Origin: a virus
Strand: one strand, 5' to 3'
IMG/VR virus record: IMGVR_UViG_3300031463_000268
Length of the DNA: 21,154 bases
Of this stretch, positions 1,774-2,268 are shown in pieces (positions within the stretch are counted from its first letter, which is position 1; every line of letters begins with the position of its first letter). Position numbers and translations under genes: made by a program. The notes under the pieces were generated by a model. That model did no database searches. It was not told the DNA's origin and saw only the letters and a list, made by a program, of their open reading frames with translations.

Positions 1774-1866
1774 TCCCCAGGGGGTTTTAGAAGGAAGTTC
1801 TTTTGGCGCCCACCAAGTGACATCCCCTAATGGCCCCCTGGGGATGCGCATCCCTTAGGGGGATGC
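1774..1866. other. GC-rich multi-palindromic intergenic element (possible structured RNA or cis site)
   Basis: 11-bp inverted repeat TCCCCAGGGGG 1774-1784 / CCCCCTGGGGA 1834-1844; perfect 14-bp palindrome GGGATGCGCATCCC 1841-1854; CATCCCCTAA 1821-1830 nearly complementary to TTAGGGGGATG 1855-1865. Confidence 0.55.
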
Positions 1867-1902
1867 TATGTGATAGGTATTAATGGTAGTGTTATATATA
1901 GG

Positions 1903-1950
1903 TGCCCCCCTTTAGTGTGTGGTGGTAAGATGAAAACACCGAGGGGGGCA
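1903..1950 (-). ncRNA. Hairpin 20 nt past the RHH stop codon whose loop is complementary to the SD and start codon of the first early gene (candidate antisense regulator)
   Basis: Stem TGCCCCCCT 1903-1911 / AGGGGGGCA 1942-1950 plus inner GTGT/ACAC. It encloses the 24-bp repeat copy at 1916-1939. RNA expression is not demonstrated. Confidence 0.4.
1916..1939 (+). repeat. 24-bp direct repeat copy 1 (TGTGTGGTGGTAAGATGAAAACAC)
   Basis: Identical to 2245-2268, 329 bp away; contains the GGTGGT SD and ATG AAA ACA. Confidence 0.95.
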
Positions 1951-1970
1951 GAAGAAAGAGTTTCACTGCT

Positions 1971-2144
1971 CTATTCTTTAATTTCGTCAAGATATTCTTT
2001 ATTTTTTTCGATAAACAAATCAATAGCTTCTTCCCATGCGGAGGTAATTGGCGTTTTCTCGAATTTTAGCATTGCGATGACTTTGAAGAGTTTGAACTTT
2101 TTTGCATCGATATTGACACTTGTGTTGACCTTTTCACTTTTCAT
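1971..2144 (-). CDS. 57-aa ribbon-helix-helix DNA-binding protein, probable repressor (below the ORF-track cutoff)
   Basis: MKSEKVNTSVNIDAKKFKLFKVIAMLKFEKTPITSAWEEAIDLFIEKNKEYLDEIKE: alternating beta strand NTSVNI followed by two helices ending in EEAIDLFIE. Divergent from the early operon across an AT-rich spacer. Confidence 0.8.
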   Translation of the reverse strand: MKSEKVNTSVNIDAKKFKLFKVIAMLKFEKTPITSAWEEAIDLFIEKNKEYLDEIKE

Positions 2145-2244
2145 GGTTTCTATTTTTTCGGAGCATAGCTTAAAAATATTTATAATATTTAACCACTACA
2201 CCAATATACCAAAAAATATATATACTATATTATCTATAAAATTA
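2145..2244. promoter_or_regulatory. AT-rich divergent promoter region between the repressor and the early operon
   Basis: Purine run plus TATA-like AAAAAATATATATAC at 2211-2225 on +; TTATAAAT-like element at about 2177-2184 on -. Confidence 0.6.
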
Positions 2245-2268
2245 TGTGTGGTGGTAAGATGAAAACAC
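2245..2268 (+). repeat. 24-bp direct repeat copy 2, forming the translation initiation region of the first early gene
   Basis: Identical to 1916-1939; its ATG at 2259 opens the 162-aa ORF. Confidence 0.95.

Follow-up and report, generated by a model that had tools for sequence, protein, structure and literature searches.

The window, i.e. the whole stretch of 21,154 nucleotides that was analysed, was compared with known viruses of methanogens. It is 87.7% identical to Methanobacterium phage psiM2 over 420-2500, and the identity between the window and psiM100, a Methanothermobacter prophage, is 76%. According to these sequence comparisons, the window is a psiM2/psiM100-like Methanothermobacter prophage. 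The features at its left end are listed in Table 1. A structured spacer is found between the integrase gene (int) and the GC-rich hairpin.

Table 1. Features at the left end of the window, with their positions in the whole stretch, their strand and the basis of the assignment.
Feature	Positions	Strand	Basis or remark
Host gene	2-472	minus	Left end of the window
Tyrosine integrase (int)	484-1692	convergent to the hairpin and the RHH-like gene	Pfam Phage_integrase, E = 1.5e-15
Second TATATATA box, adjoining the hairpin base	1893-1900		Invariant in the alignment with relatives
GC-rich hairpin, 3' of the RHH-like gene	1903-1950	minus	RNA folding; scaffold common to five types
Anti-TIR segment, reverse complement of the ORF31 mRNA 5' end, SD and AUG	1916-1939	minus	Exact repeat
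Spacer from stop codon to hairpin, 20 nt	1951-1970	minus	Sequence; compared with relatives
RHH-like gene, 57 aa, putative immunity repressor (protein P0001)	1971-2144	minus	Conservation, codon-position counts
AT-rich divergent promoter region	2145-2244		Sequence; conservation with psiM100
Target: presumed early mRNA 5' end, SD-like GGUGG (2250-2254), AUG (2259-2261) and the next 7 nt	2245-2268	plus	
ORF31 homologue (P0002), 162 aa, first gene of the rightward operon	2259-2747	plus	Homology

The divergent promoter region contains a TATATATA box at 2217-2224 with an A-run just 5' of it. If TATA box and start are spaced as they usually are in archaea, transcription of ORF31 would begin at approximately 2246-2248. 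The start codon of the ORF31 homologue is placed at 2259 because the protein is homologous with ORF31 of psiM2 and psiM100. The protein matches phrog_37053, a PHROG whose function is not assigned; it has no Pfam match, and nothing was found in Atlas. Its AF2 model has a pLDDT of 53, which is too poor for a fold search.

The GenBank records of psiM2 and psiM100 annotate a plus-strand "ORF30" and leave the minus-strand RHH-like gene unannotated. The minus-strand ORF is 67-71% identical among the window, psiM2 and psiM100. In the pairwise comparisons of the three phages, the numbers of substitutions at its codon positions 1/2/3 are 12/8/36, 15/5/29 and 16/10/35. Position 3 of the RHH-like codons is position 2 of the ORF30 frame, and the accumulation of substitutions there indicates that the minus-strand gene is under purifying selection. 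Judged by this pattern, the minus-strand RHH-like ORF is the true coding gene, and the plus-strand ORF30 is a shadow frame.

The product of this gene, P0001, has no match in Pfam, PHROG or the PDB sequences, and a Foldseek search with the monomer model found nothing. The predicted monomer (pLDDT 69) consists of an unstructured N-terminus and two helices, 14-28 and 34-47. A model of the homodimer obtained a score of 0.57, and the best of three controls obtained 0.00. The mark set for this score is reached by 20 of 30 proteins solved as one-chain pairs, and by one of 23 solved as single chains. The contacts agree to at least 95% between the dimer runs, with a partner pLDDT of at least 77. The predicted dimer is symmetric and held together by antiparallel N-terminal contacts (9-9, 11-7, 14-6) and by contacts between the second helices. 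The model points to a possible intertwined dimer like those of the ribbon-helix-helix (RHH; Arc/MetJ/CopG) repressors, and its pass may stem from likeness to RHH dimers already solved. P0001 can reasonably be taken for an RHH-like immunity repressor; "repressor" and "first lytic gene" are inferred labels.

The 24 nt TGTGTGGTGGTAAGATGAAAACAC form an exact direct repeat, with one copy at 1916-1939 and the other at 2245-2268. No further match with up to three mismatches exists in the window, and two matches were obtained in 0 of 100 shuffles. In the nearest genome, G001 (1.7 Mb), the 17-nt loop target is found at the two prophage sites only, when up to two mismatches are allowed. The first copy is part of the hairpin, in which T1903/G1904-C1910 pair with G1943-C1949/A1950. 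For the minus strand, RNAfold predicts an outer GC stem (UGCCCCCC/GGGGGGCA), a 5-bp inner stem (GGUGU/ACACU) and a 17-nt loop, UUUCAUCUUACCACCAC, at 1919-1935. The MFE is -24.4 kcal/mol (z = -3.3), and an equally good fold was found in one of 200 shuffles. The stop codon of the RHH-like ORF is at 1971-1973, and therefore 20 nt separate it from the hairpin. On the minus strand, the loop is complementary to the Shine-Dalgarno (SD) region and the AUG of the ORF31 homologue. The original prediction had claimed the exact duplication, a GC hairpin with this loop sequence 20 nt past the stop codon, and complementarity of the loop to the SD and start of the early mRNA. The repeat search confirms the duplication, the coordinates and RNAfold agree with the hairpin, and the second copy does cover the GGUGG and the AUG. 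As the segment at 1916-1939 is a direct DNA repeat 329 nt from its target, any action would be in trans.

An Rfam scan of 1600-2400 with E up to 10 returned nothing close to the gathering score, and c4 was not matched. No sign of an intrinsic terminator was found in the window, i.e. no T run of at least four follows the hairpin on either strand; the spacer at 1951-1970 has no T tract of at least five. The possibility that the hairpin is the terminator of the convergent int was rejected, as relatives without int keep the hairpin. The lack of a plus-strand T run after the hairpin, except for a TTTT in psiM100, also speaks against it. A YUNR U-turn motif in the loops was dropped as too degenerate to inform.

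To cover the relatives, we collected about 45 loci in which a homologue of the small gene lies beside an ORF31-type gene. Protein-seeded searches of IMG/VR, GTDB genomes and metagenomes supplied part of them, and contigs encoding homologues found in a large protein collection the rest. With three exceptions, all lineages that bear ORF31 have a hairpin of the form GCCCCC(C)...(G)GGGGGC after the stop codon. The loops and targets fall into five types, and in all five the same GC scaffold is present 3' of the stop codon. In type A (the window; 9 loci) the shared 24 nt cover the SD, the AUG and the next 7 nt, and give a duplex of 24 bp. Type B (the psiM100 group) shares 16 nt, GGAGTTGATCAGACAT (GGAGUUGAUCAGACAU), from the SD through the AU of the AUG. 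Type C (the psiM2 group) has AGGCGGCGAC(U), which gives ten Watson-Crick pairs and one G.U pair. Type D (the P0013 group) shares 11 nt, AGGTGGCGACC (AGGUGGCGACC), and type E (the P0011/P0012 group) 14 nt, AGGTGGCGACCAAA (AGGUGGCGACCAAA), upstream of a TTG start. The hairpin loop of each type matches the translation initiation region (TIR) of its own ORF31 and that of no other type. The N-terminal strand of the RHH-like protein differs as well, being NTSVNID in type A, HTSIYIN in type B and VPVNxRV in types C, D and E.

The 120 nt 3' of the small gene were compared with the ORF31 region from -40 to +20. Within lineages the longest string common to both measures 24, 10 and 16 nt, compared with 6-7 nt between lineages and 5-8 nt in a control with the reverse complement. 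The observed length was attained by 0, 32 and 0 of 5000 shuffles, respectively. At 65 C the duplexes have predicted energies of -13.6 to -23.5 kcal/mol and the hairpins of -7 to -12 kcal/mol; the shorter loop/target duplexes have a higher G+C content. Within a lineage the two copies are the same, and from one lineage to another they cannot be aligned; this is not what neutral drift produces, and linkage or common descent is thus no explanation. In L013, a MAG contig, the left flank of the hairpin is replaced while both 24-mers are intact. In L013 and L046 about 9 of the 20 nt just 5' of the target differ from the window, and the target 24-mer is unchanged. The boundary of conservation at 2245 coincides with the transcription start expected from the TATATATA box upstream of ORF31.

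A direct repeat permits two pairings: the hairpin RNA may come from the minus strand and bind the plus-strand mRNA of ORF31, or the strands may be swapped. Transitions that affect one side only can tell the two apart, since what is a G.U pair in one orientation becomes an A.C mismatch in the other. Type C differs from types D and E by a double change, with G replaced by A in the loop and C by U in the target, i.e. a G-C pair against an A-U pair. In L003 the loop has changed from A to G, facing a U in the target. In L033 and L035, which come from two independent sources, the target has changed from C to U, facing a G in the loop. L043 combines the loop of type C (G) with the target of type E (U), and is an intermediate of the compensatory change. 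The three one-sided cases all give G.U pairs between the RHH-sense loop and the ORF31 mRNA, and A.C mismatches in the opposite orientation. The helix lengths are 24, 14 and 11 in the proposed orientation, compared with 21, 7 and 10 in the opposite one.

The stems behave in the same way. Four pairs vary in the stems of types C, D and E. Each of them is U.G when read on the RHH-sense strand and is broken on the opposite one; standard stem pairs account for 100% of 73 cells on the RHH-sense strand, compared with 91.8% on the other. There is one weak counter-example outside the repeat, G1915 against A2244 at its left edge, which would add a G.U pair only in the opposite orientation. Taken together, the compensatory change and the strand-specific G.U changes, with a small number of independent one-sided changes (about 5-7), indicate RNA-RNA pairing of a minus-strand loop with a plus-strand mRNA. 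These sequence variants favour a pairing of the ORF31 mRNA with an RNA from the small gene's strand. The original prediction had proposed this orientation, and G.U changes are tolerated in it only. It had also looked to co-conservation of both copies in relatives; the five types, the compensatory double change and the G.U intermediates go beyond that.

Some relatives lack the element or carry an unmatched version. In L046-48 the type A target is intact and the hairpin is cleanly deleted together with the TATA box, leaving the junction ACCAAT/AAATGTTGG. In L039 the 3' flank is replaced, and there is no hairpin. L020, a contig that ends 73 nt past the stop codon, is a recombinant with the N-terminus and target of type B and a broken half of a type A hairpin. 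According to these variants, the element is dispensable for the persistence of the DNA. The distant RHH homologues P0014 (L021-24) and P0015 (L025-26) lie next to other first genes and have no GC hairpin. Their loop-TIR complementarity amounts to an LCS of 7, with duplex energies no better than those of shuffles, in a statistic that is crude because the inputs are long. A scan of IMG/VR for the motif of hairpin arm plus TATA box added just two sequences, both chance matches (a tRNA end and a coding region). By its distribution among these sequences, the element is non-essential and confined to those members of the psiM group that bear ORF31.

We propose, with a probability of roughly 60%, that the element is a trans-acting anti-TIR RNA borne in the 3' UTR of the repressor mRNA. 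The minus-strand immunity transcript, which encodes the RHH-like protein, would carry the stable GC hairpin 20 nt past its stop codon, and the active form would be either the 3' UTR or a processed 3' fragment. ORF31 opens the divergent early operon, and the hairpin loop would serve as the antisense "seed" against its TIR. Where the immunity gene is expressed, the loop and the ORF31 mRNA would form a duplex in trans over the 5' end, the SD and the AUG of the mRNA, of 11-24 bp and with a predicted dG of approximately -14 to -24 kcal/mol at 65 C. This pairing would occlude the ribosome-binding site, and cleavage may follow. A single transcript would in this way yield both a protein repressor and an RNA repressor. 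As loop and target vary between relatives, the pair would act as a determinant of immunity specificity at the RNA level. We infer the inclusion of the hairpin in the transcript, the pairing in vivo, its repressive effect and the role of the RHH-like protein as a repressor. The comparisons point to a layer of RNA control over lysis and lysogeny, not described before, in an archaeal virus. We regard it as an even bet that the immunity mRNA of psiM2-like methanogen viruses (Psimunavirus) has a dual function, as the message of a protein repressor and as a re-targetable antisense loop that acts in trans to shut off the first early gene and, with its target, defines RNA-based immunity groups.

The two copies could also be DNA operators, i.e. 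a duplex site for the RHH-like or another regulator that lies over the ORF31 start and again behind the repressor gene. Looping or autoregulation would then be possible, and the copies would covary since one protein reads both. The N-terminal strand of the RHH-like protein differs by type in parallel with the site types, which may be linked to the specificity of the protein. Furthermore, the D/E core GGTCGCCACC is nearly palindromic, type B contains TGATCA, and a protein bound from about +1 to +24 could be an obstacle to the archaeal RNA polymerase. However, an operator pair leaves unexplained why one copy is constantly placed in a loop between conserved G/C arms, why the one-sided changes are all transitions that give G.U in one strand pairing, and why the target is centred on the SD or the AUG but never on TATA/BRE. 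Copies of 10-24 nt in a shifting register to the AUG are also unlike a fixed protein site, and the TATA-flanking repeats, ATATAC(C/T) in types A and B and AAAGATAA in types C, D and E, would be better candidates for operators. We consider this reading unlikely. A function on the plus strand, either as twin RBSs of ORF30 and ORF31 or as twin sites for a translational repressor protein, appears very unlikely, although several observations agree with it. ORF30 is a GenBank plus-strand gene in psiM2 and psiM100, the first copy in the window has its own SD and ATG (1931), the 110-codon frame from 1931 overlaps the ORF31 start at its end by an ATGA, and a conserved TATA box lies just upstream of the first copy. 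On the other hand, the concentration of substitutions at codon position 2 marks ORF30 as a shadow frame, no start codon is present behind the psiM2 copy, the psiM100 copy has ATT/TTG, and the variants in stem and duplex mismatch on the plus strand. If the TATA box fired rightward, transcription would start inside the loop, which would preclude a plus-strand hairpin.

It is even harder to credit that the repeats are a substrate for recombination, by which the 329-bp repressor cassette would be deleted to give a virulent derivative with ORF31 transcribed from the TATA box at 1893-1900. The 24-nt direct repeats do flank exactly the RHH gene and the promoter region, with a conserved TATA box to the left of copy 1, and Pfister et al. 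reportedly described psiM2 in 1998 as a deletion derivative of psiM1. But the repeats of types C, D and E, of only 10-14 nt, are poor substrates and yet are kept and covary, and neither the hairpin context nor the G.U pattern is explained. The predicted junction of the cassette deletion was not found in IMG/VR, all ORF31-seeded IMG/VR loci retain the RHH gene, and the sole natural deletion seen takes the hairpin and not the cassette. We give just as little credence to the absence of any function, with local duplication or gene conversion homogenising the copies and the hairpin serving the RHH gene merely as 3' stabiliser or terminator. The copies are only 330-400 bp apart in a region that is highly mosaic among relatives (L020, L036, L043), and variants without the hairpin exist. 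Gene conversion across tracts of 10-16 nt is however improbable, all five sequences occupy the same two places, the loop and the SD/AUG, and the copies stay intact where their flanks diverge.

We compared the proposed antisense loop with known systems. The original prediction had likened it to P22 Sar and to P1 c4 among others; the likeness to Sar is loose because Sar is cis-encoded, and c4 is the better analogue. In c4 (immI) of P1 and P7, as Citron and Schuster reportedly found in 1990, a loop acts in trans on the first gene of the lytic/antirepressor operon, whose RBS it complements, and heteroimmunity is said to be set by a few loop bases and matching changes in the target. The c4 RNA is encoded on the same strand as its target and upstream of it, is co-transcribed with it, and is cut out by RNase P. 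The element described here is likewise a stem-loop with a loop complementary to an RBS, in which loop and target covary among relatives. Unlike c4, it follows a protein gene on the divergent strand, belongs to a virus with an archaeal host, and has no homology to c4 in sequence or structure (Rfam, E up to 10). P1/P7 c4 is the closest system in its logic, and the element is not a member of the c4 family.

Other regulators, such as the bacterial 3'UTR-derived sRNAs CpxQ and SroC and the CI RNA of phage P4, share the 3' end of an mRNA or are processed from a longer transcript. Their seed is usually outside the terminator hairpin, whereas here the proposed seed is within the hairpin loop. F55 of the archaeal virus SSV1 is, according to what Fusco et al. 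are said to have reported, a small RHH protein encoded divergently from the early genes and the proposed lysogeny repressor; we know of no antisense hairpin described with it. P0001 is likewise a small, possibly RHH-like protein encoded divergently from early genes, but it has no detectable similarity to any Pfam RHH family.

Among archaea, the Halobacterium virus PhiH produces in its immune state an antisense RNA, Tant, that removes the RBS of the first early lytic transcript; Tant is cis-encoded opposite its own target and is fully complementary to it over about 150 nt (PMC4284463). The mechanism proposed here would also be an antisense control aimed at the early lytic transcript of an archaeal virus. 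In contrast to Tant, the complementary segment is a copy of 10-24 nt, located 330-400 bp away in a hairpin loop. The full complementarity at a shared location that characterises the cis-encoded class (P22 Sar, PhiH Tant) is not found at this locus. In Methanosarcina mazei, sRNA154 and sRNA41 act in trans, with loops that mask RBSs and repress translation (PMC5867862). These are chromosomal intergenic RNAs of nitrogen metabolism, whereas the element here is viral, and would be appended to an mRNA and directed at a single viral target. The original prediction had held such an element to be undescribed for methanogen viruses. Literature searches agree: of the full texts searched on psiM2, psiM100 and Methanothermobacter, among them a 2026 preprint on the psiM2 life cycle, none describes the element.

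Next to nothing has been described of the control of lysis and lysogeny in methanogen viruses, and in the records of psiM2 and psiM100 the repressor-like gene is not annotated on the correct strand. It was lately reported that psiM2 can take up a non-lytic state (bioRxiv 10.64898/2026.10.07.757236). The hairpin/target pair is compact and naturally variable, and so represents a directly testable switch; genetic tools exist for Methanothermobacter. If the proposed pairing is true, the P1 c4 logic of RNA-encoded immunity specificity would reach Archaea, and the RNA would be the first trans-acting regulatory RNA of any archaeal virus. It would also provide a small thermostable translational repressor module for engineering methanogens.

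The RNA data are Logan contigs of metatranscriptomes, which carry neither strand nor depth nor end information. One contig from an unstranded RNA library (X1) spans 1833-2103, which takes in the hairpin and the 3' portion of the RHH-like gene, with DNA carry-over possible. A variant contig (X5) covers 1953-2193 and ends 3 nt short of the hairpin, which is an uninformative gap. The hairpin is not covered by contigs of other RNA runs, and such gaps carry no weight.

Possible transcript ends can be seen in some of the relatives. In L013, L033 and L035, which have no int, a T7 tract is present about 20 nt past the hairpin on the RHH-sense strand, and beyond it lies a convergent pseudomurein endoisopeptidase gene. 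The tract resembles an archaeal-type terminator, placed after the hairpin and not before it. In the window type, where such a tract is missing, the minus-strand RNA may extend past the hairpin, first into the structured spacer and then antisense to int. A T5 run is present within the ascending stem of types D and E and, in L037, ahead of the hairpin; these runs could stop some transcripts early. The TATATATA box at 1893-1900 is kept in all types, including the variants without int; in L046-48 it is lost along with the hairpin. Its candidate roles are that of a promoter on the plus strand, antisense to the RHH gene, and that of a single-stranded tail on the minus-strand RNA.

The plus-strand 'ORF30', to which transmembrane regions are assigned in the GenBank records of psiM2 and psiM100, is on sequence grounds a shadow frame of the RHH-like minus-strand gene, the putative immunity repressor. 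This gene is conserved, its product has 57-59 amino acids, and in the minus-strand frame the third codon position takes the bulk of the substitutions. The immunity region around it is highly mosaic in three related loci (L020, L036, L043). The two halves of the RHH-like gene (N- and C-terminal), the hairpin loops, the translation initiation regions and the ORF31 bodies are variously combined there, which argues for frequent recombination inside a few hundred bases.

Features of the immunity region and its surroundings
Feature	Location	Strand	Remark
'ORF30' frame (GenBank, psiM2 and psiM100)	window 1870-2262	+	overlaps RHH-like gene 1971-2144 (-)
ORF30/RHH-like gene region in relatives	L001 2951-3325; L002 2979-3281
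TATATATA box	window 1893-1900		adjoins hairpin base directly
Short repeats flanking early-promoter TATA box	window 2201-2228; also L002, L001 intergenic regions
Structured spacer	window 1774-1861		between int and the GC hairpin

Among the loop/target sequence types, the repeat flanking the early-promoter TATA box is ATATAC(C/T) in types A (the window) and B (psiM100 group), with 2-4 copies, and AAAGATAA in types C, D and E (psiM2, P0013 and P0011/P0012 groups), with 2-3 copies. The RHH-like protein may use these repeats as operators. The TATATATA box is conserved across all types, including those lacking the integrase; it could be a rightward promoter for an RNA antisense to the RHH-like gene, or a piece of the minus-strand RNA tail.

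The structured spacer contains a long-range inverted repeat of 11 nt, CCCCAGGGGG/CCCCCTGGGG, which covaries with its psiM100 counterpart, CCTCAGGAGG/TCCTGAGG. A second fold is formed by a GCATCCC...GGGATGC hairpin, and an Rfam search gave a weak, non-significant minus-strand match here to the archaeal H/ACA RNA Pab19 (22 bits, E = 0.35). Since the element is missing in the relatives without an integrase, it travels with the integrase cassette.

The integrase-less loci L013, L033 and L035 have the order RHH-like gene, hairpin, T7 tract and a convergent pseudomurein endoisopeptidase gene; the immunity module is thus retained in apparently non-integrating genomes. In three biogas-fermenter contigs (L046-L048) the hairpin and the adjacent TATA box are precisely deleted, with the 24-nt ORF31 target, of type A, unchanged, making them candidates for a natural loss-of-antisense mutant. 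In another locus, L037, 13 nt are duplicated in tandem (TTGAATGAAAAATTGAATGAAATTG) where the ORF31 homologue begins with its TTG codon, immediately downstream of the antisense target.
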